Positions 5,920 to 46,600 are shown, counted from the first letter of the stretch. The stretch is DNA of 64,000 nt from Trypanosoma brucei (GCA_000002445.1 CM000207.1:2400001-2464000); one strand, 5' to 3'. Notes: generated by a model not told the origin, from the letters alone. Program-made: numbers and translations.

Positions 5920-8325
5920 ATGAGAGCAAACACAGAAAATTCGGTTATGATACTATTGTGATGCAGTCATTTCGGAAAGACGTGCAAAGGCGGTAGTGTT
6001 CAGCAGCGCAGCATTGTCGTCAAGGGAAACGGCGGGTAATGGGATGAGACAGTGGAGAACCCAGCACGCTGAAAGCTGAAGCACATTACAGACTCGTAGT
6101 GTTCAAGGAACGAACTGCACCTGCGTTAAGGTGCATGTCAACTTCAAAAATGCGAGGAATCAGCGCTGCTACTGAGAGGATTGTTGATTGCCACAGGAAG
6201 TGGCCCACCAACATGGTGCAGTGCGGTGCAATGAGGAGATCACTTGCTCACGCGACTCACAGAGGGAACTGAAGAGTATGCTACGGCCAAGTTAGAGCCA
6301 AGTGTACTGGACAGGATTATGAGGTGGGAACAGATAGGAACTAACAAGAAATCAAAACTACGTTTGTAAGATACACAAAGAAGAGGCGCACTGAAGATTA
6401 CTTCATGCCGCACTATTTTTGTGGCGGCCAAACTTAAAAGTGGAGAAGGGTAAAGGAAGTCAACGAGTGCCCGAAGCTTTTGTAATTATTTGGTTGAAGG
6501 AAGTTGCTCCAAAATGACGTGCGGAATGGCCGCGCAGCTAAGGCGGGAGAGAAAATTGTAGTAATTTAAAGCAAGGGTGAAGGAGCTTACCTGCTTATTT
6601 GCTTAAACGGCTGCACAGCAACCGTAGGGCAAAGAAATGGAATTCAGAAATACGGTAGAGGAAGATATGTGTACACGTGCAGCCGGTGTGGTTCCTTTGG
6701 GGTTCCGTTAGGTATTAAATGGGGGTAAAGCCATTGTCAATGACAGTGAGCACGAGGCCGAAGATAACGGCTGGTTCATCCGCTTACACAAGCAAATTTT
6801 TCAACAAACAGATACTTTTTTAACTTTCACTAACTGTAATTATATGCCTCTCAGTTAAACATAAGGCTAATAAATTCCAAAAGCGTTTCGATCGTAACGA
6901 TAGCGACATATGTCGCTAAGACACACATGAAAACATGCACAGTGGTCGTACCAAAGTATCCTCACCAGCGTAGCAACACAAAAAGTTAATGGAAATTTCC
7001 TATGGAAGAGAAACCATGCGATATTCCGGTAAGGCACTTGAAACCCTTCAGTAGCAGGCGATATCCACGGATCGTTAACAACATGGAATGAGAATCACAA
7101 CACACAAGGGGGAAAGGAATCGCAATTACTCTTTGAATATCAATACTTTTAGAGGGTCGAACTATCATCTGTCATCTGTCCCACGTGGCACTCTCACACA
7201 CCACATCAAGGGTGATGGGAGAAATTTTTTGTGGGAGCATACGATGGCCGATGAGTTGGTGAGAGATCAATTATGTTTGCAACACTGCCGTTTTGGTTAT
7301 TTTCTACTTGAGCACCTTTGATACAGTGGGCCATATCAGGGTTGTGCAATAAATGCGTAAAGTTAGTGGAGAAAAGTCTAACACCCTCTGCACCGCATCC
7401 TTACCAACAGAAGGAATGGCAGCAGCTCACTTAGATAAATCACTTCCCCCTGACAAGAATAGTTTAACAGAGGGCAGGTGAAAGGCACAGTGTTCAGCCT
7501 TTTACTGTTAAAAGCTGCAGTTACCTCCCTTCATTTTCTTACCAAACATCCCAAGACACAGCTTAAAGCATGGATTCTTTGTGGAAGACTTGACAGTGAG
7601 GAGAGGGAACGTGGATGGCTTTTCAGAAGGAACTGAATGTTATAGCTGTGATAGGAATCCGTATTTACTTCAGATAACTCGTCACGAAGAAAACAGGGTG
7701 TGAGGTGTTGGGAGGACATTTGGGGTCACGGTAATGCGGAAACGCGGCGACACCCACTCCATGTTGAATTTATATCCACACCGTTAATGTACTGGCAAAT
7801 CGGATATCCGCAGCGCCTTCTTACCCATAGAGTGCAAAGTGAAGAATACAAACTGACATTGACACTCTTCATTACTTCCAACATGTATTACACACGCGTT
7901 ACTCGGATGTAAGATATCGTGTGATTACAGGAGTTATTTCAAATATCAAGAGAGCTATGGAGAGTAATGGTTTCCTGATCTTTTTTCACCCATTCTGCCA
8001 TTTCATATCATCTCTCCCATGAAATTTCGATGATATGGGGAAACAATGTGTGGTGGAGCGTATATGTAAAAAGAAGACCTGAGGGCACTTTCACCCTGGG
8101 CACCTTGTCACACGAAATAGGAGCTATGGAAGACTTTCTCACTGAGGGTTGAGCCCCTTCCACACTATTTCATGGGATTCGTGCGAAGGGAAAACAGAAA
8201 AATTATGTTTTAGCAGTAGTCATGAAGAGTTTAATTTTGTGTGAAGTAATAACCCTGAGAACACTGAAACACTTCCATGAGATGTGTGGAAGAATGTCAA
8301 AATGTCAAGAAAGCTCAAAATACTT

Positions 8326-8355
8326 CACTTTTTGGTTCTTTTTTGATTTTGCTAG
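8326..8355 (+). promoter_or_regulatory. polyY tract + AG (8354-8355): predicted SL trans-splice acceptor for array gene 1, 5'UTR ~16 nt
   Basis: cttcactttttggttcttttttgattttgctAGagg, 17 nt before ATG 8372. It is conserved in every unit. Confidence 0.5.
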
Positions 8356-8371
8356 AGGACAAGGGTGAAAC

Positions 8372-9799
8372 ATGCAAGGCACTATGTACTGGGTTGTATT
8401 TTTAGTGGCGGTACTACAGGGTATTCATTTAGTGTCGGGCCAGGAGGAGATATTGAATGAACAAGAGTTTGAAGCGTTGTGTCGAATGATAAATTGGGCA
8501 GAAAGGGGACTGAAGCACATAAAAGTAACAAAACGAGTTACCCAAGAAGCTCTGAAAATAGGCGTAAGATATCTTGAAGTGGCCGGTGAGGAAAATGCTG
8601 CTGAACTCGCTGAGGCACAGGACTATTCTTGTACGAAGAGAATGGAGGATCGGAAAAGGAATTGTGGGCTGTACAAAACATTTTGGGAAGAGGCGCAGAG
8701 AGTATTGAACAAAGGGGTTGACAGCGGAGAAAGACCTGAGCGAAAAAAAAACGGCTTGCGGGAGCACAGTGCAGAGATTAGAAAAAAGGCAATGGAAGTG
8801 GCAGATATATATCACGAAATCGAAGCGAAGAGTCCATCTGGACAAGTAGAAAAGATTGAAGAACAGCTCAATAAAGCTCTTTATGGAAGGACACACACTG
8901 CTGAAGAGATAAGGGAAAGAGAAGAGCGAAGCAGGGTGTGCGGGAAAACATTACCAAATCCACCTAATAGAGAAGACCAATCACTAGCCGTGGATTTGCT
9001 GTGCTTGTGTGCAATGCACGGCTCTTGGAACGGCAGGGAGATATGCTGCGCAGACTGCACCACAGGAAGAAATAGCGAGGAGTGGAATCCAGAATCAAAC
9101 AGCGCGCACCGCTGGGAATTTCTGAAACAGAAGTGTGCGGGAGTCATTCCAAGCTATGGTAGCACGGGGGAAAGACTGCGTGATGCAAAACAAAATTTTA
9201 TGGATGCAGTAACGAAAATAACTACAAGGAGGGGGGAGCAGTTGTCCAAACTAGGAGAAAAGCAAAACAACAACGTAAAAGACTGCGGCGCGGACACAAG
9301 CAAGAGCCAAGGAATATGCATGCTGTACGGAGCAGTTGACGGAGTGAACCTGCCCTGGATGAAAACTTTGGAAAGTGTCGAAGACAGGATAGGACTTCTG
9401 ATGCAAGAGAGCCAAGACAAGACATCAAAACTTGAGAGAATTAAAGAGCTAAGTCAAGAGATAGAAAGCTTAATCAAAGGTGATACGGGGCGAGGAAGAC
9501 AACAGGGAAGACAGAAACGGAGTGTGGATACCGAGAACAGTGTCCCAGAAACCCCAGCTGACCCGAGCGATCCAACACAGTCAACCACAGATACCAATAG
9601 AAAAAAGCAAGGTGAAAGGAAACCGATATCAACAGGTAACGGTGCATCCAAAAGCTACGGTGGAGATGAGGTTGATTCTTACGATTCCAAATGCGATGGA
9701 GAAAACTCGGCATGCTCAGATTCACCAGCAAAGCCAACAGTAAAAAGCAGCAAAAGTGCTATAAATTGTCCACTGGGATTAATTTTGCTTTTGGTATAA
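8372..9799 (+). CDS. array paralog 1: secreted, GPI-anchored variant surface glycoprotein-like protein (475 aa), family unassigned
   Basis: Signal peptide MQGTMYWVVFLVAVLQGIHLVSGQ. Ten-plus Cys, including the LLCLCAMH..CCADCTTG block. Conserved RQKR, then a T/P/S/D-rich tail, then KCDGENSACSDSP, then the hydrophobic end INCPLGLILLLV (GPI-signal-like). Stop taa at 9797-9799 verified. Confidence 0.8.
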   Translation: MQGTMYWVVFLVAVLQGIHLVSGQEEILNEQEFEALCRMINWAERGLKHIKVTKRVTQEALKIGVRYLEVAGEENAAELAEAQDYSCTKRMEDRKRNCGLYKTFWEEAQRVLNKGVDSGERPERKKNGLREHSAEIRKKAMEVADIYHEIEAKSPSGQVEKIEEQLNKALYGRTHTAEEIREREERSRVCGKTLPNPPNREDQSLAVDLLCLCAMHGSWNGREICCADCTTGRNSEEWNPESNSAHRWEFLKQKCAGVIPSYGSTGERLRDAKQNFMDAVTKITTRRGEQLSKLGEKQNNNVKDCGADTSKSQGICMLYGAVDGVNLPWMKTLESVEDRIGLLMQESQDKTSKLERIKELSQEIESLIKGDTGRGRQQGRQKRSVDTENSVPETPADPSDPTQSTTDTNRKKQGERKPISTGNGASKSYGGDEVDSYDSKCDGENSACSDSPAKPTVKSSKSAINCPLGLILLLV

Positions 9800-12700
9800 A
9801 CGAAAAGTTCCAACACAAGGTAAGGAAAAAGAGATGGAATTGGTTGTGTTTGCGGCATCTCAATATTCCACACGGAGTGGGATGGTGTGCATTTCAAAAC
9901 TTGTACAGGAGACACGTGATGCGTCAGAGCAATCGTGCTCAGCAGCACAGCCATCCAGGAAGCCTAAACGAAAGAGGGAAATGTTGGGAGGGTTTATGCT
10001 TCGTGATACTAGTAATGCGTGTTGTTGAGAACCTTTTCATATTAAAAGGAACACTACAAAAACTGAAAGCATTTACGAATGATGGGAAAGCTCATAGAGG
10101 CTATAAACGGCTAAAATGTACCGGCCGTACTGAGTGGGTGGTGTGAAAATAAAAAGGGATATGTTGTAGAGAGTGTCAATACAGGAAGGCTACACAAATG
10201 GAAAGGAATAATAAATACAGAAAAAGGGACGTCATAATATTTTACTGAGCTCCATGCAGGAAGTGCAAGGGATATTTCCAATGGGGAAGTTGGGAAGGTT
10301 AAAAAAAAAGGCGAAAACATATGAGTGATAATGTAAATATAGTCTGATGGAAGGAAGTGTTGCTTTGGAAAAAGACAGACAAATAACTAAAAGAGGATTG
10401 ACTGGAGAAAATGATGCCAGGCGAAACACATAAAAAAATGGGTTCGGGAAGCATGGATATTTCGAACTTGGAACATAAAGACAAAAGAGCAGGAAAAGTT
10501 GTGGGAAATGGCATGTTATATATTTGCATCGTTATAGCAAAAAAAACTGTTTGGTGTGTCGAATGAGTGAAGGAACTGAGGCACTCAAGACCGCTGAATA
10601 AGAAAATGGAGAAGGAAAGCCACGGAAAGTAATGAGGGGATATCTTGAAAGCCGCGCACACAGACACGTACACTTGATAGCGGGGTGTGAAAAAGCAAGG
10701 AGTGGAACAAAAGCCTTCATCGCTATGATGGTTAAGAAATACGACACCACCACAATGCGCTGTATAATTCAAAGCAGACGTATTATTAAAGGGATCGGTA
10801 TTAGTGGAAATACCTGTGGTATTAACCTTTGCGGTGCTTGAAGTGATGGCATGAAAAAGATTAGAGATACCCTCTTCTGTGTTGTGTCGGATACATGGAA
10901 AAAGAAAGTGTGTGCTTGGCCTAAGGATGTAATGTGCTAAACCATAAGGCAGTAATAAAATACCTCAAAGCAATTCTATCGCCAAAAGGAATCGATGATG
11001 CTGTGGTTCAGACGAGAAATATCACACTACAGAATCCGACATTGCATGGGACGCAACTATGTGTCAACGCGGCGGTGATATAAGCTATCAAAGCAAAAAA
11101 TGATGCAATTATGGGGATTTATCATGCAGCAGCGTTGTCTACTATGGAAAATGCAGTAACCACTGAAAAGGAGGAAACATGCTTCAAGGAGCAAAAAGTA
11201 GCAGTGATTGCTGTAACAACAAGATTGTGGTTGTAAATAAAAAAAAAGAAAAGGAAGCGAAACTACGACCCAAGGATATTTAGAGTAGTATCGAAACTGC
11301 CTAAACATCACTAATGAATGCATATTTACCAAATGCGAATATATATGTATATGTGAATATATACGTACATCAATATTCTACAAAAATAGTGCTTTGCAGC
11401 GTGTGAGACTTTCAAAACATTTTTTGTGGAACACTTAAGCATAATTGTTGTTAATGGAAAATTGATCTATGGATACCTTCTTTTTGCTACATGTATTTTG
11501 AATTTGTTTGAGAGGAAAATGGTAACATCTCTGAGGTAAACTCTGGGACAATATAAAAGTGCTGGAGAAAATTTCTTGGTTTGACAGTAGCAATATCATG
11601 AACTAAAGAAGTGATTAAAAGATCTGTAACACGGGAGTATGTGCTTTTGCCATTGTACGATTTTCTTGATATATGCATTGAAGTGATTGATTGAATAGGG
11701 GTGCAAGTCTCATGAAACATGCTCTTCATTCAACCAAGGCTTTTTAGGAATATGCAGCAAAAGTCGAAAAATGACTGACTTGACAACCAAAATGGCGTCC
11801 CTATTCTATTAGTGAAAATTCGAATGAAACAGCACATAATGGAACTACATGAAAATTCAAAGGAAATGTGATATCAAATTCCTAACCCGCTGTATCAAAT
11901 TTCTCACACACCTTTCATAAAAGTATTTTTACATACATGTTTGAATTGAAAACACTCGACAAAATAATTTATGTGATCTGCGTATGAAATGTGTGATGAA
12001 TTCTGCCCAATCGTGCTAATCTCTCTATTATTGTTAAACCTCACCTTACCATTTGTTTCAGTAAAGGCAAGAAAGCAATATTAAATGATGAAATACTGTT
12101 AAACGGTGAAGTTACAAAGGAATATCTTTTCCGCAACAGAGAGTAACTATCTGAGAGGAGTTTAATGAACCGTGTACAATGATAGTGTCAGCACACTAAG
12201 TCTTGGAACAGCATAAACAGACTAGGATAACCAAAGGGGAAGAAGTGACACCTGGTGCTATGCAGTAACTAGCTTCAGAGGCAAAAAAAAGGCTGCTCAA
12301 TCCTATGGAAGCAATGTAACCTCACAGCCGTAGCAGTAGCGTGAATAAGAAAGGAAATGTGAACTTAGAAAAAACATATTGAACTCAAAGTGAAAAAGCA
12401 GAAGCAGTCAACCGCATAGAGGTATCAAAGGCATAACGTAGTTTGTTGGAAGGGGCGCCGAGCAAAATCAAGTTTTAGGCAGGTGATCCGGTATGGATGT
12501 ATCACACTGCACATGGATGCCACAAACCAAGAGACTTTGAATAGATGAAAGGAAAGATGAGAGACTTCGCGTCTATCAGGCGTGCTTGAGTTAGGGGCTG
12601 TAGTGGAAAGCAAACACAAACTGCTTACCCGAAGAGGGACAGTAACATGAACAATCCGAAATGGGTTTCAAACTATCTGGCACAATATCATTTTGACTGG

Positions 12701-15700
12701 GTCTGAGAGAGAGAGCTCTTTGGCCAGAGACAAACACGCGCGTTACTATAACCTTACAAATGACTCGAATACAGATATCAAATGCAATATTCTAAACGAA
12801 TAAAAACAAGGCTCAAGAGGCAACAATGCGGAAGATTCCGTTGAGTTACTTTACGTTAGCGTGAGGGTAGGAAAGAAAATGAAGAGATTTTGTGAATCTG
12901 GAAAAGGAAATGTGAGAACGCAACCCTACAACAGCTTTTAAAATATCCCATGGACTAAAGCGTTGAATAGAATTGACGGGAAAATGAGCAACCTGACTGT
13001 TAGCAAAGACAAGGGAAACTATGGCAAAGCTAACCTAGTTAAGCTGTGGCATCGCCAATTTAATTAAAACAAGCCAGAGTGAAGAGAGGATGCCATTCAG
13101 AGTTATAAGAAAGTAAAGCCATGAAAGTATAATTGGCACGATTACTTTGTTAAATTACGATACAAATACGAGTAAAACACAAATAATAATTATGGGAGCA
13201 AGCCAGGAGTTACCTGTGAAGGTGAAATTACTGCTGATTATAATAGTGCGGGTGTCTCTCGAATGAAACGCGAAAACCGTCGGCACAGTACAGCGTCCAC
13301 GCACTCAAACTGTGAAAGAGGATGTCAGTGGGTCAACGGTGAGATTGTGAGGCCACATCGCAAGCCAGTTATCTAAAACAGTGTGGGATTTGTTCAAACA
13401 TTACCCAGATTATATTTGTTTCTGTTTGTAAACGTGTGATTAGGCACTAAACTTCAATTCTAGCAGTGTTTGAATCTGTAGTACAATTAATATTTACCCC
13501 TTTCGTTTGAAAGTTAGTATAACTCTACGGTTTTGTCGGTCATTCAACGTAGTCTTGAAAGGGCCCAAAAGCACAAATACGTGACTTCTTAACATTTCAT
13601 CAGAGATGCACTACACCACACGGGTGAGCACATTGCCGTAACTAGGGGGTAGGTTTACTTTTTTGACACAGCTTCAAAAAGGTAGAACCTCGAATATGAT
13701 GCAAGTGGACCTCAGGTGGGGACTATCTGGCGCAAGAAAACGCTAGCAGAACTCGGGTCTCTCCCTCGCTTGAGGTAAAAGTTGTGTTGCATTGCGGGCT
13801 TCGGTGACGATTGCTCACTCCTTATTCAGATTTTTGAGGTTACCAAGCATGTAAAGCTAAGGGAGTGCAGTTCTTTCTCTGTAGTTGTTGGGTGAGCGGT
13901 TATGTAAATGTGTATATCTTCACATTTTTATATTTAAATGTTGGCTTTTACGAATTTTTTTGTTTGCAATGGGTTGAAATTACACGGCAACGACGTGGTT
14001 CAAGGTGTGAATTTTACTGATTTAGTTTTTGACGCCATCTCAGTTAGTGAAAGGATACGATGGCGATCCGCAAAGGGGAGGAAAAGGGCTTCCAAATTGC
14101 AGAGACGTACCAAAAATTGACAGGAATTTAGGTTGCTCAAAGGAAAATAATTATAGATATTAAGCGGCAAGAAACTTTGTGCTGGAGAGGCTTCTGGGGT
14201 TGGATTCTGTTTGACAGAAACTGCACGCCATGGCTGATAAGTGAGCTGCTTCCCATGAGGCATAGACGGGTGAATAATGCTTCCCTCAGTTTTTTGAGTG
14301 GGAATTCGTCGCTGTAAAAGATTCACCTGGTGTGAAAAGAATTGATAGAGCGTATCCGAACATTTTAATTACTCCAATCTAAGGAACAAGAAGTGTGAAA
14401 CATCTGGTGAGGGTAGAACGTCTTGTTACCTTAGCTCCCTTGGGCGGAACACAGGTGTAGGGTCGTGTAAAAAAGGGACGAGAGGTGTGTCTTCCTATTG
14501 AAGTTGGAGGTCTCTAGCTGAAAAAAAAAAGCCACTGACTCTAGTGACACGAATAGTCCAGACAATATCCCTAGGCGCGCGCACCTCACAGGCCGGCAGA
14601 ATAGTAAAACTCAATTTTCACTACAATCCAGTTACCAAACTGTACATTTAATCTTACTCTTCCCACTGTAAAAACATATAAGTGTTATTCAACTCGGGTG
14701 CTGAATCCATACCAAAGCACATAGAGGTAACAAATAAAAGTCGCTATTTCTGAAAACTAATTCACACTTGCCTGCGAATGCACACCTTTCCTTTAACATT
14801 CGTAAGACAGTATAGGGTCCTACTGAAGTCCTGGTTTACACAAGATATTATATACGATTGGTCACGCAGTCACCTCTGCTGCTTTCCGGACAATAAAGTG
14901 ACTAACTGCGAAGCATGGCTCTCAATGGGAGAGATTTTCTAAGCGGGTTAAAGAGCCATACTATGGAGACTCATACATGTGTATATTATTGTTGGGGTGA
15001 TTCACCAGCCCTTTTTACAAAATGTATAATATCCTCTTGCATTTGGCAGTGAAGCATAAAAGCGTGCTGCTGTTGTACTGAATATATCCCCTTTCCTTTG
15101 CGGTACCCTCCTTTCTCTTTATAAATAATGAGCCTGGTGTGAATTAGAAGAGTGTGCGAATTTATCCAAAATAGAGTGGGTGTAATGGGAAGACACATCA
15201 TGTGGAGGACACTCCGTATGCTAGCAGCTGATGCTTACGGTGGAAGTGGAAGAAGCATTCAGTATCCGAGGCGTAGTGCCACCTTGCCATAAATTGGCTG
15301 TCGGAGTTGACAAGAGATCACTGAAGTGGCAACCCTCCAAGGGCCACTTAGTGAAGATGTGCGCCATTATGTCGCTAAGACACACATGAAAACATGCACA
15401 GTGGTCGTACCAAAGTATCCTCACCAGCGTAGCAACACAAAAAGTTAATGGAAATTTCCTATGGAAGAGAAACCATGCGATATTCCGGTAAGGCACTTGA
15501 AACCCTTCAGTAGCAGGCGATATCCAAGGATTGTTAACAACATGGAATGAGAATCACAACACACAAGGGGGAAAGGAATCGCAATTACTCTTTGAATATC
15601 AATACTTTTAGAGGGTCGAACTATCATCTGTCATCTGTCCCACGTGGCACTCTCACACACCACATCAAGGGTGATGGGAGAAATTTTTTGTGGGAGCATA

Positions 15701-16784: not shown

Positions 16785-16814
16785 CACTTTTTGGTTCTTT
16801 TTTGATTTTTCTAG
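16785..16814 (+). promoter_or_regulatory. polyY tract + AG (16813-16814): predicted SL acceptor for array gene 2
   Basis: Same conserved element as at 8326-8355. Confidence 0.5.
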
Positions 16815-16830
16815 AGGACAAGGGTGAAAC

Positions 16831-18255
16831 ATGCAAGGCACTATGTACTGGGTTGTATTTTTAGTGGCGGCACTACAGGGTATTCATTTAGTGTTGGGCC
16901 AGGAGGAGATATTGAATGAACAAGAGTTTGAAGCGTTGTGTCGAATGATAAATTGGGCAGAAAGGGGACTGAAGCACATAAATTTGGCACGACAGGTTAC
17001 TGAAGAAGCTCTGAAAATAGGCGTAAGATATCTTGAAGTGGCCGGCGAGGAGGAGGTTACAGAGCTTACCGAACTGCAGGAGAAGGCGTGCATGAGCAAC
17101 AAGAAGACAAGTCACGAAAAGAATTGTGGACTGTACAAAACATTTTGGGAAGAGTCACAGGAAGCATTGAAGAGGACTGCCAGATCGCAAGCGCCTCATC
17201 GAGGAAGGAACAGTTTGCAATATCATACAGCGGAAGGAATTAAAATCAAAGTAATGGAAGTGGCGGATACGTATCACGAGGTCAAAAAAGAAATCTTGAA
17301 ACTTAGAACGGATAACATGGAGGAGCAACTCAATCAAGCTCTTTATGGAGTAGGACATTTTACTGGAGAGGTAAAAGGAGGGGATTCGGACCGAAGCAGA
17401 GTGTGTGGACAAAACCTGGGCAACCGCGACGCCACTGGAGGTTGGTCACTAGCCGTGGATTTGTTGTGCTTGTGTGCGAGGCACATATCCTGGAGCAGCG
17501 TGAAGAGTGTATGCTGTGAGGAGTGCGGTACGGGAGAGAACAGCAACACATGGAACCCAGCATTAGACGGAGCACTACACTGGGAATTTCTAAAAGAGAA
17601 TTGTCCAGGTGATAATACAAATCACCATACAGAGGGCGAACAGCTGAAAAGCGCCAAAAAGAATTTTATGGCAAAAGTGTCTAAAATAGCCACTATCCCA
17701 TATAGAACTATGTACAAGCTTGGAGACAGTAAAAATATACAAACAAAGCAATGCGGGGCTAACATAGGCACTGGCCAGGGAATATGCGTGTACTACGGAT
17801 CTGATAATGGAGCGAATCTGCACTGGATGCAAGCGTTGGAAAGGGTTGAAAATGATGTTGAAGTTCTTCTGCAAGACAGTAAATATAAGTCGACTAAGCT
17901 AAAGAGGATTAAAGAGCTAAGTCAAGAGATTCAGAACCTAATCGAAGGTGGCACGCCGCGGGGAAGACAGAAACGGAGTGTGGATACCGAGAACAGTGTC
18001 CCAGAAACCCCAGCTGACCCGAGCGATCCAACACAGTCAACCACACATACCAATGAAAAAAAGCGAATTGTAAGAAAACCGATATCAACAGGTAACAATG
18101 CATCCAAAAGCTACGGTGGAGATGAGGTTGATTCTTACGATTCCAAATGCGATGGAGAAAACTCGGCATGCTCAGATTCACCAGCAAAGCCAACAGTAAA
18201 AAGCAGCAAAAGTGCTATAAATTGTCCACTGGGATTAATTTTGCTTTTGGTATAA
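16831..18255 (+). CDS. array paralog 2 (474 aa), same family
   Basis: Signal peptide MQGTMYWVVFLVAALQGIHLVLGQ. The C-terminal ~110 aa are near-identical to paralog 3. The internal block RVCGQNL..ATGGWSLAVDLLCLCA is shared with paralog 4. Confidence 0.8.
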   Translation: MQGTMYWVVFLVAALQGIHLVLGQEEILNEQEFEALCRMINWAERGLKHINLARQVTEEALKIGVRYLEVAGEEEVTELTELQEKACMSNKKTSHEKNCGLYKTFWEESQEALKRTARSQAPHRGRNSLQYHTAEGIKIKVMEVADTYHEVKKEILKLRTDNMEEQLNQALYGVGHFTGEVKGGDSDRSRVCGQNLGNRDATGGWSLAVDLLCLCARHISWSSVKSVCCEECGTGENSNTWNPALDGALHWEFLKENCPGDNTNHHTEGEQLKSAKKNFMAKVSKIATIPYRTMYKLGDSKNIQTKQCGANIGTGQGICVYYGSDNGANLHWMQALERVENDVEVLLQDSKYKSTKLKRIKELSQEIQNLIEGGTPRGRQKRSVDTENSVPETPADPSDPTQSTTHTNEKKRIVRKPISTGNNASKSYGGDEVDSYDSKCDGENSACSDSPAKPTVKSSKSAINCPLGLILLLV

Positions 18256-25267: not shown

Positions 25268-25283
25268 AGGACAAGGGTGAAAC

Positions 25284-26708
25284 ATGCAAGGCACTATGTA
25301 CTGGGTTGTATTTTTAGTGGCGGTACTACAGGGTATTCATTTAGTGTCGGGGCAGGATATAGTGAATCAACAGGAGTTTGAAGCGTTGTGTCGAATGATA
25401 AATTGGGCAGAAAGGGGACTGAAGCACATAAAACTAGCTAAACAAGTGACGGAAGAAGCTCTGAGCATCGGCATAAGATATCTTGAAGTCGCTGATGCAG
25501 ATAGCGCTGCTCAACTTGGCGCGGCAGAACACGATGCTTGTATGGATAAAAGAGAGGTTCGTGAAAAAAACTGCGGATTGTACAAAACATTTTGGGAAGA
25601 GTCACAGAGGCTATTAAAGGAAAAGCATGAAAGATCGCAAGCACATCACCGAGGAAGGAACAGTTTGCAATATCATACAGCGGAAGAAATTAAAAGCAAA
25701 GTAATGGAAGTGGCGGATATATTTCACGAAGTCAAGTGGGAACTCTTAGAACTCAAAGTAAATAATATGGAGGAGCAACTCAATCAAGCTCTTTATGGAA
25801 GGACATACTCCGCAGAAGAAATAAGGGAAAGAGAAGAGCGAAGCAGGGTGTGCGGACAAAGCTCGCGTAGTGAAATGATTATTGGGGGCCAATCACTAGT
25901 AATGGATTTGTTGTGCTTGTGTGCAATGCACAGTTCTTGGAAAGAGATGAGGGTATGCTGCGCAGACTGCACTACGGGAGAGAACGGCAACACATGGAAC
26001 CCAGGATCAAACGGAGCACCACGCTGGAAATTTCTGAAACAAAAGTGTGCGGGAGCCACCACTAGTTACGTTAGCGTACGCAAAACCCTGCGTGGTGCAA
26101 AACAGGATTTTATGGATGCCGTAACGGAAATAAGTGCAAACAGAAGAACAAATTTGTACAAACTTGGGGAAAAGCAAAACAAAGAAATAAAAGACTGTGG
26201 AGCAGACAAAAACAGCAAAGAAGGAATATGTGTGTTTTACAGAGAGCGTGATGGAGTGGTGTTTTGGATGAAAGCGTTGGAAAACGTGGACAACAAGATG
26301 GAAGTTCTGCTTCAAGACAGAACAAAGAAGACATCAAAACTTGAGAGAATTAAAGAGCTAAGTCAAGAGATAGAAAGCTTAATCAAAGGTGATACGGGGC
26401 GAGGAAGACAACAGGGAAGACAGAAACGGAGTGTGGATACCGAGAACAGTGTCCCAGAAACCCCAGCTGACCCGAGCGATCCAACACAGTCAACCACACA
26501 TACCAATGAAAAAAAGCGAATTGTAAGAAAACCGATATCAACAGGTAACAATGCATCCAAAAGCTACGGTGGAGATGAGGTTGATTCTTACGATTCCAAA
26601 TGCGATGGAGAAAACTCGGCATGCTCAGATTCACCAGCAAAGCCAACAGTAAAAAGCAGCAAAAGTGCTATAAATTGTCCACTGGGATTAATTTTGCTTT
26701 TGGTATAA
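25284..26708 (+). CDS. array paralog 3 (474 aa), same family, clearly chimeric
   Basis: The N-terminus is like paralog 1. The RVCGQSSRSEMIIGG block is shared with paralog 5. The C-terminus follows paralog 1 (GDTGRGRQQGRQKRSVDTENS) up to PTQSTT, then follows paralog 2 (HTNEKKRIVRKPISTGNNASKS). Confidence 0.8.
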   Translation: MQGTMYWVVFLVAVLQGIHLVSGQDIVNQQEFEALCRMINWAERGLKHIKLAKQVTEEALSIGIRYLEVADADSAAQLGAAEHDACMDKREVREKNCGLYKTFWEESQRLLKEKHERSQAHHRGRNSLQYHTAEEIKSKVMEVADIFHEVKWELLELKVNNMEEQLNQALYGRTYSAEEIREREERSRVCGQSSRSEMIIGGQSLVMDLLCLCAMHSSWKEMRVCCADCTTGENGNTWNPGSNGAPRWKFLKQKCAGATTSYVSVRKTLRGAKQDFMDAVTEISANRRTNLYKLGEKQNKEIKDCGADKNSKEGICVFYRERDGVVFWMKALENVDNKMEVLLQDRTKKTSKLERIKELSQEIESLIKGDTGRGRQQGRQKRSVDTENSVPETPADPSDPTQSTTHTNEKKRIVRKPISTGNNASKSYGGDEVDSYDSKCDGENSACSDSPAKPTVKSSKSAINCPLGLILLLV

Positions 26709-33735: not shown

Positions 33736-33760
33736 ACAAGGGTGAAACATCCAAGGCACT

Positions 33761-35185
33761 ATGTACTGGGTTGTAGTTTTACTGACGGTACTCCACAGTT
33801 GTCATCGGGCGCTTGGTAAGGAGGATATAGTGAATCAAAAGGAGTTTGAAGCGTTGTGTCGAATGATAAATTGGGCAGAAGAAAGACTTGAGCACATAAA
33901 AGTAACGAAACGAGTTACCCAAGAAGCTCTGAAAATAGGCGTAAGATATCTTGAAGTGGCCGGTGAGGAAGAGTGTAGACACATCGCCAAAGCGCAGGAA
34001 GATTCTTGTACCAAGAAAATGGAGGATCGGAAAAGGAATTGCGGGCTGTACAAAAATTTTTGGGAAGAGGCGCAGAAAGCAGTGAAGGAAAGGGCTTTTA
34101 GCGGAGAGAAGCTGGAGCGTAAAATAGACGCTTTGGGGGAGCATACAGTGGACGAAATAAAAAAAAAGGGAATGTACGGGGCAGATATATATCATGATGT
34201 TGAAGCGAAGAGGCCGTCAGGAAATATGAGAAAAATGGAGGAGCACCTCATTAAAGCTCTTTATGGAATGGAATATTTTAGTGAAGATATAAAAGGAGGG
34301 GATTCAGATCGAAGCAGAGTCTGCGGGCAAAATCTGCGTAACAATAAGGCAACGGGGGGTTGGTCACTAGCGGTGGATTTGTTGTGCTTGTGTGCAACCC
34401 ACAACTCCTGGAAAGGTAGGAAGAAGGTTTGCTGCGCAGACTGCAGTACAGGAGAGAATAGAGACGAATGGAATCCAGAGTCAAACGAGGCACCACGCTG
34501 GGATTTTCTGAAACAGAAGTGTGCAGGCCGTCACCGAAATCGTCACGACATGATCGAAAAACTGAGTGAAGCGGAAGAGAATCTTATGAAAACAGTAACT
34601 AAAATAGGCACAATACCATATACACATACGTACGTGCTTGGAACCGCTGTAAATAGCAGAATAAAACCATGCGGGGCTGATATAAACAAGCAGCAGGAAA
34701 TATGTGTGCACTACGGATCAGATAACGGAACGAAACTTCCCTGGTTAAAAGCGTTGCAAAAGGTAGAAAAGGAAATGAAACTTACGCTGAAAGATAAACA
34801 AGATAAGTCAGCTAAGCTCAAGCGGATGGAAGAACTAAATCAAGAGATCGAAAGCTTAATCAGAGGTGATACAGGGCGAGGAGGCCAACGGGGAAGACAG
34901 AAACGCAGTGTCAATCCCGAGAACAGTGTCCCAGAAACCCCAGCTGACCCGAGCGATCCGACACAGTCAGTCCCACATACCAATGAAAAAAAGCGAAGTG
35001 TAAGGAAACCGATATCAACAGGTAACGGTGCAACCAAAAGCTACAATAGCGAAGAGGATGATTCTTACGAATATGAGTGCGAGGGAGAAAACTCAGCATG
35101 CTCAGATTCGCCAGCAAAACCAACAGTAAAAAACAGCAAAAGTGCTATAAATTGTCCACTGGGATTAATTTTGCTTTTGGTATAA
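33761..35185 (+). CDS. array paralog 4 (474 aa), same family
   Basis: The canonical first ATG is mutated to ATC (aacatCcaaggcactATGtactgg). Translation would begin at the next in-frame ATG (MYWVVVLLTVLHSCHRALG). The C-terminal 105 aa match paralog 5 except one residue (SVNPENS...SVPHTNEKKRSVRKP...EEDDSYEYECEGENSACSDSP). Confidence 0.75.
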   Translation: MYWVVVLLTVLHSCHRALGKEDIVNQKEFEALCRMINWAEERLEHIKVTKRVTQEALKIGVRYLEVAGEEECRHIAKAQEDSCTKKMEDRKRNCGLYKNFWEEAQKAVKERAFSGEKLERKIDALGEHTVDEIKKKGMYGADIYHDVEAKRPSGNMRKMEEHLIKALYGMEYFSEDIKGGDSDRSRVCGQNLRNNKATGGWSLAVDLLCLCATHNSWKGRKKVCCADCSTGENRDEWNPESNEAPRWDFLKQKCAGRHRNRHDMIEKLSEAEENLMKTVTKIGTIPYTHTYVLGTAVNSRIKPCGADINKQQEICVHYGSDNGTKLPWLKALQKVEKEMKLTLKDKQDKSAKLKRMEELNQEIESLIRGDTGRGGQRGRQKRSVNPENSVPETPADPSDPTQSVPHTNEKKRSVRKPISTGNGATKSYNSEEDDSYEYECEGENSACSDSPAKPTVKNSKSAINCPLGLILLLV

Positions 35186-38100: not shown

Positions 38101-41100
38101 AGAGAGTTCTTGGGACAGAGACAAACACGCGCGTTACTATAACCTTACAAATGACTCGAATACAGATATCAAATGCAATATTCTAAATGAACAATAAAAA
38201 CAAGGCTCAAGAGGCAACAATGCATAAGATTCCATAGAGTTACTTGACATTAGCGTGAGGGTAGAAAAGAAAATGAAGAGATTTTGTGAATCTGGAAAAG
38301 GAAATGTGAGAACGCAACCCTACAACAGCTTTTAAAATATCCCATGGACTAAAGCGTTGAATAGAATTGACGGGAAAATGAGCAACCTGACAGTGAGCAC
38401 AAACAAGGGAAACTATGGCAAAGCTTACATAGTTAAGCTGTGGCATGTCAATTTAATTAAAACGTGCCAGAGTGAAGAGAGGATGCCATTCAGAGTTATA
38501 AGAAAGCAAAGCCATGAAAGTGTAATTGACACGATTACTTTGTTACAATCCGATACAAATACGAGTAAAACACAAATAATAATTATGGGAGCAAGCCAGG
38601 AGTTACCTGTGAAGGTGAAATTACTGCTGATTATAATAGTGCGAGTGGCTCTTGACACAAATGCGAAAACCGTAAGCACAGTTCAGCGTCCACGAGCTCA
38701 AACTGTGAAACAGGATGAAAGCTGGTCAACGGTGAGATTGTGAGGCCACATCGCGAGTCAGTCATCTAAAACAGTGTGAATTTCGTTCAAACATTACCCA
38801 GGTTATATTTGTTTCTGTTTGTAAACGTGTGATTAGGCACTAAACTTCAATTCTAGCAGTGTTTGAATTTGTAGTACATTTGATATTTACCTCTTTTGTT
38901 GGAAAGCCAGTACGATTTTACGGTTTTGCCGATTGTTCAACGTAGTCTTGAAAGGGCTCAAAAGCACAACTACGTGACTTCTTAACATTTCATCAGAGAT
39001 GCACTACACTACACTACACGGGTGAGCACATCGCCGTAACTCGGGGGCAGGTTTACTTTTTTGACTCAGCATCAAAAAGGTAGAACCTTGAATATGATGC
39101 AAGTGGACCTCAGGTGGGGACTATCTGGCGCAAGAAAACGCTAGCAGAACTCGGGTCTCTCCCTCACTTGAAGTAAAAATTGTGTTGCATTGCGGGCTCC
39201 GGTGACGATTGCTCACTCTTTATTCAGATTTTTGAGGTTACCAAGCATGTAAAGCTAAGGAAGTGCAGTTCTTTCTCTGTAGTTGTTGGGTGAGCGGTTA
39301 TGTAAATGGGTATATCTTCACATTTTTATATTTCAATGTTGGCTTTTACGAATTTTTTTGTTTGCAATGCGTTGAAATTACACGACAACGACGTGGCTCA
39401 GGGTGTTACATGTACTGATTTAATTTTTAACGCCATCTCAGTTAGTGAAAGGATACGATGGCGATCCGCAAAGGGAAGGAAAGAGACTTCCGGATTGCAG
39501 AGACGTACCAAAAATTGACAGGAATTTAGGTTGCTCAAAGGAAAATAATTATGGATACTAAGCGGTAAGAGACTTTGTGCTGGAGAGGCTTCTGGGGTTG
39601 GATTCTGTTTGAACAGAAACTGCACGCCATGACTGATAAGTGAGCTGGTTCCCCTGAGGCATAGACGGGTGAATAATGCTTTCCTCAGTTTTTTTGAGGG
39701 GGAATTCGTCGCTGTAAAAGAGTCACCTGGTGTGAAAAGGATTGATAGAGCGTATCCGAACATTTTAACTATTCCAATCTAAGGAACAAGAAGTGTGAAA
39801 CATCTGGTGAGAGTAGAACGTCTTGTTACCTTAGCTCCCTTGGGCGGAACACAGATTTAGGGTCGTGTAAAAGAGGGACGAGAGGTGTGTCTTCCTATTG
39901 AAGTTGGAGGTCTCTAGCTGAAAAAAAGCCACTGATTCTAGTGACATGAATAGTCCAGACAATATCCCTAGGCGCGCGCACCTCACAGGCCGGCAGAATA
40001 GTAAAACTCAATTTTCACTACAATCCAGTTACCAAACTGTACATTTAATCTTACTCTTCCCACTGTAAAAACATATAAGTGTTATTCAACTCGGGTGCTG
40101 AATCCATACCAAAGCACATAGAGGTAACAAATAAAAGCCTCTATTTCTGTAAACTAATTCACACTTGCTTGCGAATGCACACCTCTCCTTTAACATTCGT
40201 AAGACAGTATAGGGTTTTACTGAAGTCCTGGTTTACGCAAGATATTATATACGGTTGTTTACGCAGTCACCTCTACTGGTTTCTGGACAAGAATGTGACC
40301 AGCTGCAAAGCATGGCTCTCAATGGGAGTGATTTGCGAGTCATGTTAAAGAGCCATGCTATGGAGACTCATACATGTGTATATTATTGTTGGGGTGATTC
40401 ACCAGCCCTTTTTACAAAATGTGTAATATTCTCTTGCATTTGGCAGTGAAGCATAAAAGCGTGCTGCTGTTGTACTGAATATATTCCCTTTCCTCTGCGG
40501 TACCCTTCTTATCCTTTTTAAATGATGAACTTAGTGTGAATTAGAAGAGTGCACGAATTTATCCAAAATAGAGTGGGTGTAATGGGAAGACACATCACGT
40601 AGAGGACACTCCGTATGCTAGCAGCTGATGCTTACGGTTGGAAGTAGAAGAAGCATTCAGTATACGAGGCGTAGTGCCACCTTGCCATAAATTGGCTGTC
40701 GGGGTTGACAAGAGATCGCTGAAGTAGCAACTCTCTAAGGGCCACATAATGAAGATGTCCGCCATAATGTCGCTAAGACACACATGAAAACATGCACAGT
40801 GGTCGTGCCAAAGTATCCTCACCACAGTAGCAACACAAAAAGTAAGGGTGAGTTCCTATGGAAGAAAAATTATGCGATATTCCGGTAAGGCACTTGAAAC
40901 CCTTTAGTAGCAGGCGGTATCCAAGGATTGTTAACAACAAACATGGTATGAGAATCACAACACACAAGGGGAAAGAGGAACAATTACTCTTTGAATCTCA
41001 ATACTTTTAGAGGGTCGAACTCTCATCTGTCATCTGTCCCACGGTGGCACTCTCACACACCACATCAAGGGTGATGAGAGAATTTTTGTGTAAGCATATG

Positions 41101-42219: not shown

Positions 42220-42232
42220 ACAAGGGTGAAGC

Positions 42233-43654
42233 ATGCGGAGAAGTATGTACTGGGTTGTATTTTTAGTGGCGGCACTACAGGGTATTCATTTAGTGTCGGG
42301 GCAGGATATAGTGAATCAAAAGGAATTTGAAGCGTTGTGTCGAATTGTAAATTGGGCAGAAAAGGGACTGAAGCAGATAACTTTGGCACGACAGGTTACC
42401 CAAGAAGCTCAGAAAATAGGCGTGAGATATCTTGAAGTAGTCGGTGAGGAAAATGCTGCTGAGCTCGCCAAAACACAAGAAGATTCTTGTGCATATAAAA
42501 GGGAGGTTGGCGGAAGGAATTGTGTGCTGTACAAAACATTTTGGCAACATGCGCAGGAAGCATTGAAGGGGACTGCCAGATCGTCAGTCCATCACAGAGC
42601 AATGAATACATTGGAATATCATACAATTGAAAAAATAAAAGAAAAAGCAATGCACGGGGCAGATATATATCACGATGTTGGAGCGGAGAGTCTGTCAGTA
42701 AAGGTGGAAAAGATTGAGCGGAAAATCAATCAAGCCCTTTATGGAATGGAATATTTCACCGAAGAAATAAAGCCAGGAGGAGACAGGAGCAGAGTGTGCG
42801 GTCAAAGCTCGCGTAGTGAAATGATTATTGGAGGAAACTCACTGGCCGTGGACTTTTTGTGCTTGTGTGCAATGCACAGTTCTTGGAATGGAATAAAGGT
42901 ATGCTGCACAGACTGCACTACGGGAGAGAATAGCAATGAATGGGACCCAGAATCAAACGGAGTACAACGTTGGAAATTTTTGAAACAGAAATGTGCTGAT
43001 CATAATCCAAATTATTATGACACGGAGAAAAGACTGCGTAATGCAAAACAGAATTTTATGGATACAGTAACAACGATACATGGAAGAGGAGGAAGAACTT
43101 TGTACAAACTTGGGAAAAAGCAAAGCAGTGAAGTAAACAACTGCGGGGCGGGTACTGGCCGCGGGCAAGGAATATGCGTGCTATATAAGGGACATGGAGA
43201 GGAGCTGCCCTGGATGAAAGCGTTGGTAGAGGTCGAAAATGAGATGGAAGTTCTGCTTCAAGACAAACACAATAAGTCAGCAAAACTAGAGAGAATTAAA
43301 GAGCTAAGTCAAGAGATAGAAAAGTTAATCAAAGGTGATCCGGGGCGAGGAGGCCAACGGGGAAGACAGAAACGCAGTGTCAATCCCGAGAACAGTGTCC
43401 CAGAAACCCCAGCTGACCCGAGCGATCCGACACAGTCAGTCCCACATACCAATGAAAAAAAGCGAAGTGTAAGGAAACCGATATCAACAGGTAACGGTGC
43501 AACCAAAAGCTACAATAGCGAAGAGGATGATTCTTACGAATATGAGTGCGAGGGAGAAAACTCAGCATGCTCAGATTCGCCAGCAAAACCAACAGTAAAA
43601 AACAGCAAAAGTGCTATAAATTGTCCACTGGGATTAATTTTGCTTTTGGTATAA
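42233..43654 (+). CDS. array paralog 5 (473 aa), same family
   Basis: Signal peptide MRRSMYWVVFLVAALQGIHLVSGQ. C-terminus as paralog 4. Internal blocks are shared with paralogs 2, 3 and 4. Confidence 0.8.
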   Translation: MRRSMYWVVFLVAALQGIHLVSGQDIVNQKEFEALCRIVNWAEKGLKQITLARQVTQEAQKIGVRYLEVVGEENAAELAKTQEDSCAYKREVGGRNCVLYKTFWQHAQEALKGTARSSVHHRAMNTLEYHTIEKIKEKAMHGADIYHDVGAESLSVKVEKIERKINQALYGMEYFTEEIKPGGDRSRVCGQSSRSEMIIGGNSLAVDFLCLCAMHSSWNGIKVCCTDCTTGENSNEWDPESNGVQRWKFLKQKCADHNPNYYDTEKRLRNAKQNFMDTVTTIHGRGGRTLYKLGKKQSSEVNNCGAGTGRGQGICVLYKGHGEELPWMKALVEVENEMEVLLQDKHNKSAKLERIKELSQEIEKLIKGDPGRGGQRGRQKRSVNPENSVPETPADPSDPTQSVPHTNEKKRSVRKPISTGNGATKSYNSEEDDSYEYECEGENSACSDSPAKPTVKNSKSAINCPLGLILLLV

Positions 43655-46600
43655 ACGAAAAGCTCCAACACAAGGTAGAGAAAAAAAGAGGATATGGAAT
43701 TTGTTGTGTTTGCGGCACCTCAATATTCCACACGGAGGGAGATGGTGTGACTTTCAAAACTTGTACAGGAGACATGTGATGCGTCAGAGCAATCGTCAAC
43801 TCCAGTAGAGTCATCCTGGAAACCGCAACGAGAGAGGGAGATGTTGGGAGGGTTTATGCTTCGTGATACTGGTAATGCGTATTGTTGAGAACCTTTTCAT
43901 ACCAAAAGGAACACTACGAAAATTGAAAGCATTTTCTAATGATGGGAAAGCACATAGAGGCTATAAACAACTAAAATGTACCAACCGTACTGAGTGGGTG
44001 GTGTGAAAATAAAAAAGTATATGTTGTAGAGAATGTCGATACCGGAAGGCTACAAGAATGGAAGGAATAATAAATACAGAAAAAGAGACGCCATACTTTT
44101 CACTGAGCTATCTACAGGACATGGAAGGGATATTTCCAATGAGGAAGTTGGGAAGGTTTCAAACAAAAAAGGAGAAAACATATGAGTGATAATGTTAATG
44201 TAAGTAACGGAAGGAAGTGTTGCTTTGGAAAAAGACAGACAAATAACTGAAAGAGGGTTGACTGGAGAAAATGATGCCAGGTGAAACACATAAAAAAATG
44301 AGTTCGGGAAGCATGGATATTTCGAACTTGGAACATAAAGACAAAAGAGCAGGAAAAGTTGTGGGAAATGGCATGTTATATATTTGCATCGTAGTCGCAA
44401 AAAACTGTTTGTTGTGTTGAATGAGTGGAGAAACTGAGGCACTCACGGCCGCTGAATAAGAAAATGGAGAAGGAAAGCCATGGAAAGTAATGAGGGGATA
44501 TCTTGAAAGCCGCGCACACAGACACACACACGTGATAGCGGGGTGTGGAAAAGCAAGGAGTGGAACGAAAGCCTTCATCGCTATTATGGCTAAGAAATAC
44601 GACACCACCAGAATGCACTGCAGTGTTTAAAGGCAAACGAATTATTAAAGGGATCAGTATTATTGGCTGAAATACCTGTGGTATTAACTTTTGCGGTGCT
44701 TGAAGTGATGGCATGAAAAAGATTAGAAACCTCTCTTTGTTGTTAGGTCGGATGCATGGAAAAAAGAGAGTGCGTGGCTGCTCTAAGAATGTAACGTGCA
44801 AACTACAAGGCAGTAATAAAAGACCCCAAAGCAATTCCATGGCCAAAAGGACTTGATGGCGCCGTGGTTCAGACGAGAAATATCACACTACAGAATCCGA
44901 CATTGCATGGGACGCAACTGCGTATCAACGCGGCAGTGATATAAGCTATCAAAACAAAAAATTATGCAATCACGGAGGTTTTTCATGCAGCAGCGTTGTC
45001 TACTATGGAAAATGCAGTAACCACTGAAAAGGAGGAAACATGCTTCAAGGAGCAAAAAGTAGCAGTGATTGCTGTAACAACAAGATTGTGAGTGGAAATA
45101 AAACAAACAGGAAGCTAAACTACGACCCAAGGATATTTAGAGTAGTATCGACACTGCCAAAGCATCACTAATGAATGCATATTTACCGAATGCGAATATA
45201 TATGTATATGTGAATATATACGTACATCAATATTCTACAAAAATAGTGCTTTGCAGCGTGTGAGACTTTCAAAACATTTTTTGTGGAACACTTAAGCATA
45301 ATTGTGATTAATGGAAAATTGATCTATGGATACCTTCTTTTTGCTACATGTATTTTGAATATGTTTCGGAAGAAAATGGTAATATCTCTGAGGTAAAATC
45401 TGGAACAATATAAAAGTGCTGGAGAAAATTTCTGGGTTTTACAGCAGCAATATCATGAACTACAACAGTGGTTATAAGATCTGTAAGACGGAAGTACATG
45501 TTTGTGCCATTGTACGATTTTCTTGATATATGCATTGAAGTGATTTGAATGAATAGAGGTGCAAGTCTCATGGAACATGCTCTTCATTCAACCAAGGCTT
45601 TTTAGGAATATGCAGCAAAAGTCGAAAAATGACTGACTTGACAACCAAAATGGCTTCCCTATTCTATTAGTGAAAATTCGAATGAAACAGCACATAATGG
45701 AACTACATGAAAATTCAAAGGAAATGTGATATCAAATTCCTAACCCGCTGTATCAAAATTCTCACACACCTTTCATAAAGGTATTTTAACATACATGTTT
45801 GAATTGAAAACACTCGACAAAATAATTTATGTGATATGCATATGAAATGTGTGATGAATTCTGCCCAATCGTGCTAATATCGCTATTATTGTTAAACCTC
45901 ACCTTACCATTTGTTTCAGCAAAGGCAAGAAGGAAATACTAAATGATGAAATACTGTTAAACGGTGAGGGTACAGAGGAATATCTTTTCCGGAACAGAGA
46001 GTAACTATCTGAGAGGAGTTTAATGAACCGTGTACAATGATAGTGTCAGCACACCAAGTCTTGGAACAGCATAAGCAGGCTAGGATAACAAAAGGGGAAG
46101 AAGTGACATCTGGTGCTATACAGTAACTAGCTTCAGAGGCAAAAGGAAAAGCTGCTCAATCCTATTGAAGCAATGTGACCTGCTTTCCCCTAGTCCTATT
46201 CCTGTTGCTGCGGTGCATAATATTTTGACAGCAATGTGATGCAGCACTCAGCCATTAACACTCTAGCCATAAATGTAGTATCTAATATGTGAATGGTAAC
46301 CCATGGCGATACATTCCATATGGAACAATATCACATTGTTAAATATGCGCATGGAATTAAAACTATAGCACTAAATTGAAAATGAAAAATTAGAAAAGAA
46401 AAAGATATGAATTATCAAGAGAAGCATATTCTTCACTGACATTCATTTATTTTAATATAATCATAGTTTGATGTTATATTAAATAATAAAGAGCCCAATA
46501 TACTGTATAGCAGAATGGCAACAATTTCACTATAGCACCTGTAAATAAGAATATGTAATAAAATAAATGATAAAAAAATAAATCAAAATACAGCAAGCAC

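Follow-up and report, generated by a model that had tools for sequence, protein, structure and literature searches.

A tandem array of five class-B VSG-like genes with near-identical flanks and divergent N-terminal domains on Trypanosoma brucei chromosome 9

The stretch of Trypanosoma brucei DNA analyzed here (64,000 nucleotides, GCA_000002445.1 CM000207.1:2400001-2464000; hereafter the window, with positions counted from its first letter) carries five related genes in a head-to-tail tandem array, each coding for a protein of 473-475 aa with an N-terminal domain of the class-B variant surface glycoprotein (VSG) type. The array very probably corresponds to five tandem VSG-related (VR, or "atypical VSG") genes already annotated on chromosome 9 of T. 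brucei brucei TREU927. An earlier reading of the window from its nucleotides alone (the sequence-only reading) had described mosaic surface-glycoprotein paralogs that might form an undescribed surface-protein family.

Layout of the array and its five proteins

Self-BLAST of positions 6001-16000 against the whole window delimited a head-to-tail tandem repeat spanning 6903-46181 with a period of ~8.46 kb, in agreement with the extent (6910-46180) and period given by the sequence-only reading. Repeat units started at 6903, 15361, 23815, 32278, and 40760, the final unit being cut at 46181, which gave a unit count of 4.64. A repeat finder returned five-copy families at a spacing of 8453-8484 bp, and the start-to-start distances of the five open reading frames (ORFs) were 8459, 8453, 8477, and 8472 bp. 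Tandem Repeats Finder, whose longest period of 500 bp makes it blind to a period of 8.46 kb, reported nothing at score 200. Both array junctions were sharp, as had been proposed, with homology to the other units beginning within a few bases of 6903 and ending at 46181/46182. The earlier description of five head-to-tail units held for the five intact ORFs and had to be corrected for the repeat itself, which comprises only 4.64 units with the last one incomplete.

Each full unit consisted of a 5.4 kb segment "a" (upstream flank, gene, and the following 2.5 kb) and a 3.0 kb segment "b" that occurred between units only. The features of the array are as follows:

6903..46181, + strand: whole tandem array, (a b)x4 + a, from self-BLAST, repeat families, and junction sequences
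6903..8371, + strand: upstream part of the unit, with a conserved polypyrimidine tract
8372..9799, + strand: VR gene 1, 475 aa, 100% identical to XP_827706/EAN77376 "VSG, atypical, putative"; Pfam VSG_B E 5.2e-84
16831..18255, + strand: VR gene 2, 474 aa, taken to be XP_827707 on the basis of length and of identity to gene 1
25284..26708, + strand: VR gene 3, 474 aa, taken to be XP_827709 on the basis of length and of identity to gene 1
33761..35185, + strand: VR gene 4, 474 aa, taken to be XP_827712 on the basis of length and of identity to gene 1
42233..43654, + strand: VR gene 5, 473 aa, taken to be XP_827715 on the basis of length and of identity to gene 1
8490..9450, + strand: variable mosaic segment coding for the N-terminal domain, gene 1 (in the others 16949-17918, 25399-26359, 33867-34836, and 42348-43305)
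9451..9796, + strand: conserved C-terminal tail of gene 1, residues ~360-475, with 2 Cys plus 1 in the hydrophobic end, ending PLGLILLLV; kept in the other four genes
9509..9526, + strand: R-Q-K-R-S-V dibasic motif at the border of domain and tail, from the alignment (in the others 17965-17982, 26418-26435, 34895-34912, and 43364-43381)
9800..12322, + strand: non-coding downstream part of segment "a", common to all five units and without a conserved ORF
12323..15360, + strand: segment "b", 3.0 kb, between units only (copies at 20777-23814, 29233-32277, and 37715-40759)

The sequence-only reading had proposed five paralogous proteins of secreted type, and intact + strand ORFs of 473-475 aa, each with a hydrophobic leader, were indeed found. 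All five proteins opened with the leader WVVFLVAVLQGIHLV...SG/Q, in which a hydrophobic 12-mer within residues 3-18 (mean Kyte-Doolittle value 2.1-2.4) was followed by SG/Q. Gene 4 lacked the first ATG of the other four copies (33749-33763) and its ORF began at the methionine equivalent to M5, so that M5 may be the true start in all copies. Upstream of the genes, a conserved polypyrimidine tract was followed by AG ~20-30 nt 5' of each ATG, a likely trans-splice acceptor.

Twelve cysteines were conserved per protein within residues ~37-316, and from ~residue 370 a nearly invariant tail followed that was rich in Pro, Ser, Thr, Asp, and Glu and contained two further cysteines. All five proteins terminated in ...SKSAINCPLGLILLLV. 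The C-terminal ...VKSSKSAINCPLGLILLLV offered small residues and a spacer, but its hydrophobic end comprised just 8-9 residues; this short terminus resembles a glycosylphosphatidylinositol (GPI) signal, and other VR proteins have similar C-terminal ends. At the border between domain and tail, the furin/kexin-type motif R-Q-K-R/S-V was invariant in all five array proteins and in all four homologues from other records, and could mark a site for proteolytic release of the domain. R-E-K-R was present in the C-terminal tail of another VR protein.

The spacers, of ~7 kb per unit, were 90-100% identical from unit to unit and contained a stop codon every 17-21 codons, so that five open frames of 473-475 aa are not due to chance. 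They held no ORF conserved between units; minus-strand ORFs of 217 aa in units 3 and 4 (27244-27897 and 35726-36379) were rejected as genes, as they had no Pfam match, were shorter in unit 1, and were not among the ORFs listed at a 200-aa cutoff in units 2 and 5. One whole 7-kb spacer, searched against Pfam in six frames with X in place of stops, yielded no domain and therefore no recognizable retroelement or pseudogene remnant. BLASTN and TBLASTX of the spacer against the rest of the window gave no similarity, the same programs detected no extra fragments of VR genes or of the neighboring ESAG6-like and RHS genes within the window, and Rfam at gathering score returned no RNA family for the whole window. 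Such long, empty 7-kb spacers (9800-16830 and equivalents) seem unusual for T. brucei and could be long untranslated regions (UTRs) or sequence homogenized by conversion.

A class-B VSG domain and its relation to known VR genes

The Pfam family VSG_B (PF13206) matched genes 1, 4, and 5 with E values of 5.2e-84, 1.4e-85, and 7.3e-87, covering residues 9-358 and profile positions 2-351 of 352, and no Pfam VSG C-terminal family was found at E<=1. The sole match in a profile search of PDB sequences was the metacyclic class-B mVSG1954 (E 3e-7). An AlphaFold prediction from nine close sequences was poor, with a predicted local distance difference test score (pLDDT) of 51, and the model used was obtained from a 71-sequence alignment (AF2; pLDDT 75, predicted TM-score 0.71). 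In this model the domain at residues 30-370 was good (mostly 80-97), and the tail at ~372-475 was predicted to be disordered, with block means dropping from ~372 and pLDDT <50 for most of 399-475. The top 17 matches of Foldseek against the PDB were all class-B VSG N-terminal domains (mVSG1954, VSG11, VSG3, VSG615) at E 2.7e-7 to 3.9e-3 and probability 1.00 with moderate TM-scores (TMt 0.39-0.48), compared to E >0.3 for receptors with other trypanosome helical-bundle folds and for the sole A-type VSG listed, which had E 2.4. The N-terminal domain of each protein is a class-B VSG domain with 12 conserved cysteines. The earlier guess of a "b-type VSG/ESAG2-like" family was thereby borne out by both Pfam (VSG_B, E 1e-84 to 1e-87 for all five proteins) and fold, the latter through the comparison with VSG and ESAG6 folds that had been suggested as a check, in which the ESAG6/7-type structure 6soy was matched only at E 1.6.

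An exhaustive HMMER search retrieved 167 cluster representatives at E<=1e-3. The clade of the array proteins formed one cluster at 50% identity (900 bits), and the next matches, at 195-107 bits, were mostly annotated "VSG-related" and encoded on other T. brucei chromosomes; ordinary B-type VSGs came after them. Among the best matches 10 cluster representatives were named (E 2e-52 to 8.5e-26), six of them from clusters labeled "VSG-related, putative" in TREU927, DAL972, or T. equiperdum and the remaining four VSG, "VSG, atypical", or hypothetical. A word-indexed homologue search, also when run with a profile, returned the same nine close relatives only, all from Trypanozoon. Two more TREU927 members of the clade, CAJ16171.1 and CAJ16160.1, known from UniRef and nr, lay outside the window and carried yet other N-terminal domains; their origin is possibly the second homologue of chromosome 9 or unplaced contigs, in which case the diploid genome has at least seven different domains.

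Five TREU927 entries on one record (XP_827706, XP_827707, XP_827709, XP_827712, and XP_827715) were all named "variant surface glycoprotein (VSG, atypical), putative". Five "VSG-related" genes adjoining the RHS gene Tb09.244.2180 (Tb09.244.2200, Tb09.244.2240, Tb09.244.2280, Tb09.244.2310, and Tb09.244.2330) were 3.1-7.6-fold up in cultured bloodstream compared to procyclic forms, with a modest signal (Jensen 2009, PMC2771046). By count, order, and neighbors, these are almost certainly the five ORFs of the window. VR genes in general are chromosome-internal, lie at strand-switch regions, and are without 70-bp repeats (Marcello and Barry 2007, as summarized in PMC2771046, PMC2854126, and PMC3605285), and have been described as T. 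brucei-specific with a structure similar to T. congolense VSG (Jackson 2013, PMC3605285). VR proteins as a class were detected in the surface proteome of bloodstream forms (Gadelha 2015, PMC4587319). In another study, the VSG/ESAG islands include "a segmental duplication in T. b. brucei of an atypical VSG" (Jackson 2010, PMC2854126), which may be the present locus. A literature search by presumed new gene IDs (Tb927.9.1569x-158xx) yielded nothing about the array genes. The array is already known, having been annotated since the 2005 genome and treated as VR or "atypical VSG" in several papers. In the accessible parts of the VR literature, no statement was found on near-saturated synonymous divergence (dS) of N-terminal domains inside near-identical flanks, or on the locus as an island of divergence that has a single copy in the assembly of T. 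b. gambiense.

The array genes share with VR genes a B-type VSG-like N-terminal domain joined to a non-canonical C-terminus, a position at a strand-switch region, outside expression sites and without 70-bp repeats, a low expression that is higher in bloodstream forms, and confinement to T. brucei. They differ in their GenBank label of "VSG, atypical" rather than "VSG-related", in forming a well-separated sub-branch with its own conserved tail and 21-30% identity to other VRs in the alignment, and in being laid out at an 8.46-kb period with strongly homogenized spacers.

A conserved 16-mer in the 3'UTR is a defining feature of canonical switchable VSG genes, and their upstream 70-bp repeats act as a boundary for conversion. 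This 16-mer (TGATATATTTTAACAC) had no match in the whole window at <=2 mismatches, no tandem repeat with a period near 70 bp occurred anywhere in the window, and no (TAA)n tract lay within 6903-46181. The tail, with two cysteines plus one in the hydrophobic end and predicted disorder, did not match a VSG C-terminal domain with 4 or 8 Cys. A tail not of VSG type, combined with the lack of 16-mer, 70-bp repeats, and (TAA)n tracts, indicated that the genes are not ordinary switchable VSG cassettes, and the suggestion by the sequence-only reading of an antigenically varying family was not upheld, as 70-bp repeats, 3'UTR 16-mer, and Pfam VSG C-terminal domain were all absent.

With canonical class-B VSGs (VSG3, VSG11, VSG615, and mVSG1954) the array proteins share Pfam family, predicted fold, leader, a hydrophobic C-terminus resembling a signal, and mosaic reshuffling of N-terminal-domain segments. 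They are, in contrast, just 13-17% identical to the solved structures, have 0-1 N-glycan sequons and no structured VSG C-terminal domain, and their genes, without 70-bp repeats or 16-mer, are neither telomeric nor in an expression site. The ESAG6/ESAG7 transferrin receptor and other VSG-derived receptors offer a precedent for VSG-fold proteins with altered C-termini as ligand receptors and are close in setting, an ESAG6-like gene lying directly upstream of the array, but they have A-type folds, to which the array model is related only by the weak 6soy match. ESAG2 is b-type and of similar length; it differs in its location, the telomeric expression sites, where its transcription accompanies that of the active VSG, and it was not found among the 20 nearest named cluster representatives. 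A further family, Fam1 (Tb927.6.1310 and paralogues), encodes proteins of 347 aa whose copies differ by 0.1-3.2% in nucleotides (Jackson 2013, PMC3605285), compared to 473-475 aa and differences of 18-43% in the domain-coding parts of the array genes.

Divergence, alternatives and a proposed explanation

Identity between units was 0.90-1.00 in the flanks and the tail-coding region, reaching 1.00 over >1 kb of flank among units 1-3 and ~0.99 between units 4 and 5, as opposed to 0.57-0.82 in the variable segment, which extended from ~codon 40-70 to ~codon 360. In this segment dS was 0.64-1.28 and the ratio of nonsynonymous to synonymous divergence (dN/dS) was 0.30-0.55, and in the tail dS was 0.01-0.27. 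The far higher dS of the interiors than of the tail implies that the interiors are much older than their surroundings, and the interior divergence is not merely amino-acid-level positive selection. The term "diversifying" used by the sequence-only reading therefore calls for qualification: with dN/dS of 0.30-0.55 and synonymous sites as diverged as replacement sites, the signal is one of old, maintained, and reshuffled diversity and not of positive selection on amino acids.

Conserved ends around a variable, mosaic interior, also part of the sequence-only reading, were recovered in full. The 155 informative sites of the N-terminal domain were clustered by split type, and 0/5000 permutations reached the observed compatibility of neighboring sites. 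The flanks supported the split {4,5} against {1,2,3} up to ~10.1 kb and {1,2} against {3,4,5} thereafter, and within the domain the pairings switched by block, genes 1 and 4 being paired at 8725-8764, 1 and 3 at 8889-8935, and 2 and 4 at 9205-9332. The mosaic extended across strains: the T. b. gambiense protein tracked that of T. equiperdum at alignment columns 11-210, gene 5 at 211-250, a second TREU927 copy at 261-280, and, around columns 351-371, gene 4.

The T. b. gambiense locus consisted of the left flank, segment "a", and the right flank, without segment "b". Between ~5.9 and 52.4 kb the window was only 78-94% identical to T. b. gambiense, and the DNA on both sides was 96-100% identical. 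Low identity between near-identical sides, a single copy, and the lack of segment "b" thus marked the region as a divergent island of variable copy number, and the difference looks like deep haplotype divergence or a collapsed assembly. Lister 427 and EATRO1125 entries matched the T. b. gambiense VR protein with an identity of 90% or more, and the T. equiperdum contig broke 1.9 kb after its homologous gene.

Several other explanations of the array were weighed. An ordinary silent VSG archive, from which genes reach an expression site through duplicative transposition during antigenic variation, would account for the genuine class-B N-terminal domain, the GenBank name, the mosaic variable parts reminiscent of VSG segmental conversion, and the related sequences in the Lister 427 and EATRO1125 "VSGnome" lists. 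It is highly improbable for genes that have neither 70-bp repeats nor (TAA)n tracts upstream, lack the otherwise invariant 3'UTR 16-mer, carry a disordered two-cysteine tail in place of a Pfam VSG C-terminal domain, and lie inside a + strand gene block, not in a separate subtelomeric array. The undescribed lineage-specific family that the sequence-only reading had considered could be argued from the mere nine close relatives of the word-indexed search, all Trypanozoon, and from the single cluster at 50% identity with its drop from 900 to 195 bits. This proposal is almost certainly wrong, since the proteins match VSG_B at E 1e-84 and already exist as annotated TREU927 "VSG, atypical" entries, the five genes were listed as VR in 2009 within a published class (PMC2771046), and their closest outside relatives are annotated VR proteins.

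Two further alternatives concern assembly and decay. Spacers that are 99-100% identical over >1 kb are hard for Sanger assembly, two more TREU927 members (CAJ16171 and CAJ16160) are known from UniRef and nr only, T. b. gambiense has one copy, and the T. equiperdum contig ends shortly past the gene, all of which would be expected if the five-copy array were partly an assembly product, with two TREU927 homologues stitched together or the copy number mis-estimated. This appears quite unlikely, as five distinct N-terminal-domain sequences (57-82% nucleotide identity) cannot stem from one gene, the two-type flank pattern, {1,2,3} against {4,5} and then {1,2} against {3,4,5}, is consistent along the array, and five separate microarray probe sets gave different signals (PMC2771046). 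Decay into functionless VSG-like pseudogenes, with interiors made variable by relaxed constraint, is a very unlikely account: adjoining non-coding DNA has a stop every 17-21 codons, and yet nine intact ORFs (five here and four from other records) keep 12 invariant cysteines, many invariant core residues, and an invariant leader, tail, and dibasic motif, at a dN/dS well <1 with dS ~1. In its favor are the lack of a known function, low expression (PMC2771046), the fairly high dN/dS of 0.30-0.55, and the sufficiency of a single copy in the T. b. gambiense assembly.

The preferred reading is that of a known VR array whose products, to judge from position and literature, are most likely minor membrane-anchored surface proteins. 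A number of points weigh against it or its parts. The Tb09.244.22xx-23xx identifiers were mapped to the ORFs indirectly, by count, order, and neighbors, and the chromosome 9 clade was not found in the searchable parts of the surface-proteome supplement (Gadelha 2015). For a GPI-anchored surface protein a hydrophobic tail of only 8-9 residues is short, and as the proteins carry 0-1 N-glycosylation sequons each, gene 1 lacking any, the designation "glycoprotein" is not evident from the sequence. A dN/dS <1 is by itself no sign of selected diversity, and a mismatch barrier to conversion could suffice. Near-identical 7-kb spacers in an assembly of the Sanger era leave room for a copy number that is off by a unit or two, or for a mixture of the two haplotypes. 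Finally, transcription by RNA polymerase II in a polycistron and co-expression of the copies are inferences.

With these reservations, an explanation of the VR array can be outlined. From their position and the literature, the genes would be transcribed by RNA polymerase II in a polycistron with the upstream genes and individually trans-spliced, all copies being active at once at a low level that is higher in bloodstream forms than in procyclic forms, and would take no part in expression-site switching. The products would enter the secretory pathway and are probably GPI-anchored, minor proteins of the surface or flagellar pocket; we would guess that their VSG-like domain binds a ligand from host or parasite, as other VSG-derived proteins do, or otherwise meets the immune system. 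Gene conversion and unequal crossing-over may be frequent in the flanks, with conversion tracts stopping at, or being selected against in, the highly diverged domain segments, and retention of different domains may be favored. If conversion is free in the flanks and barred in the domains, the array would keep a panel of domains on a common regulatory and targeting chassis.

Such a panel would make the locus a small cassette-exchange system outside expression sites, a tentative idea that we regard as possible and, taken as a whole, rather unlikely. In it, a uniform chassis (5' flank, leader, tail, GPI-like end, 3' flank, and spacer) would carry ancient domain segments that move in blocks between paralogues, between alleles, and between strains, with host-driven balancing selection maintaining their diversity, resulting in a strain-specific panel of co-expressed minor surface proteins from which R-Q-K-R may shed the domain. 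The array shows VSG-like domains kept different, with near-saturated synonymous sites, while their surroundings were kept the same, at a locus whose sequence and copy number differ strongly from one T. brucei subspecies to another. It is thus a natural test case for how gene conversion is bounded in VSG-like genes and for host-driven balancing selection on invariant-looking minor surface proteins, although neither question would overturn current views.

Genes and DNA around the array

The array is flanked by the following features:

4132..5439, + strand: upstream neighbor, an A-type VSG-fold ESAG6/7-like protein of 435 aa; Pfam Trypan_glycop E 8.7e-07
46182..47586, no strand: gap between the array end and the RHS 3' end, a convergent strand-switch point by composition profile and gene orientations
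47587..49359, - strand: downstream neighbor, an RHS protein of 590 aa; Pfam RHSP, RHS_N, and DUF7578

The best PDB sequence matches of the upstream neighbor were weak (ESAG7 E 0.07, ESAG6 E 0.17), and a syntenic gene was present in T. b. gambiense and T. equiperdum. It is probably Tb927.9.15680, a putative non-telomeric ESAG6 in the literature. The RHS ORF covered RHSP profile positions 1-250 of 312 and was C-terminally truncated; the syntenic T. b. gambiense RHS has 593 aa. The accessory context noted by the sequence-only reading was corroborated by these two neighbors, the ESAG6-like gene with its weak ESAG7/ESAG6 matches upstream and the RHS gene downstream on the opposite strand.

The array genes followed an adenylate cyclase gene and the ESAG6-like gene on the + strand, with the RHS gene on the opposite strand, and the GC skew changed sign at ~46 kb. 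In T. b. gambiense DAL972 the order was adenylate cyclase, ESAG6-like, one VR gene, and RHS on the minus strand, and the locus lay at 2.10-2.12 Mb of a 2.16-Mb record, 40-58 kb from its end (FN554972.1 2102341-2123771). Gene order, skew flip, and the DAL972 position therefore indicated that the array ends a + strand block at a convergent strand switch on the core/subtelomere border, close to the right end of the chromosome 9 core, and not deep in the core.

Beyond the RHS gene, positions 52000-56000 were very AT-rich (GC 26-30%) with many short AT-rich tandem repeats, and (TAA)n tracts occurred at 52161-52187 and 54936-54989. Minus-strand ORFs of 232-241 aa at 56599-57324, 58718-59416, and 63279-63986 had no Pfam match. 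Nearby on the same chromosome, Tb927.9.15850 has been named ESB3, an expression-site-body protein (PMC13056571).

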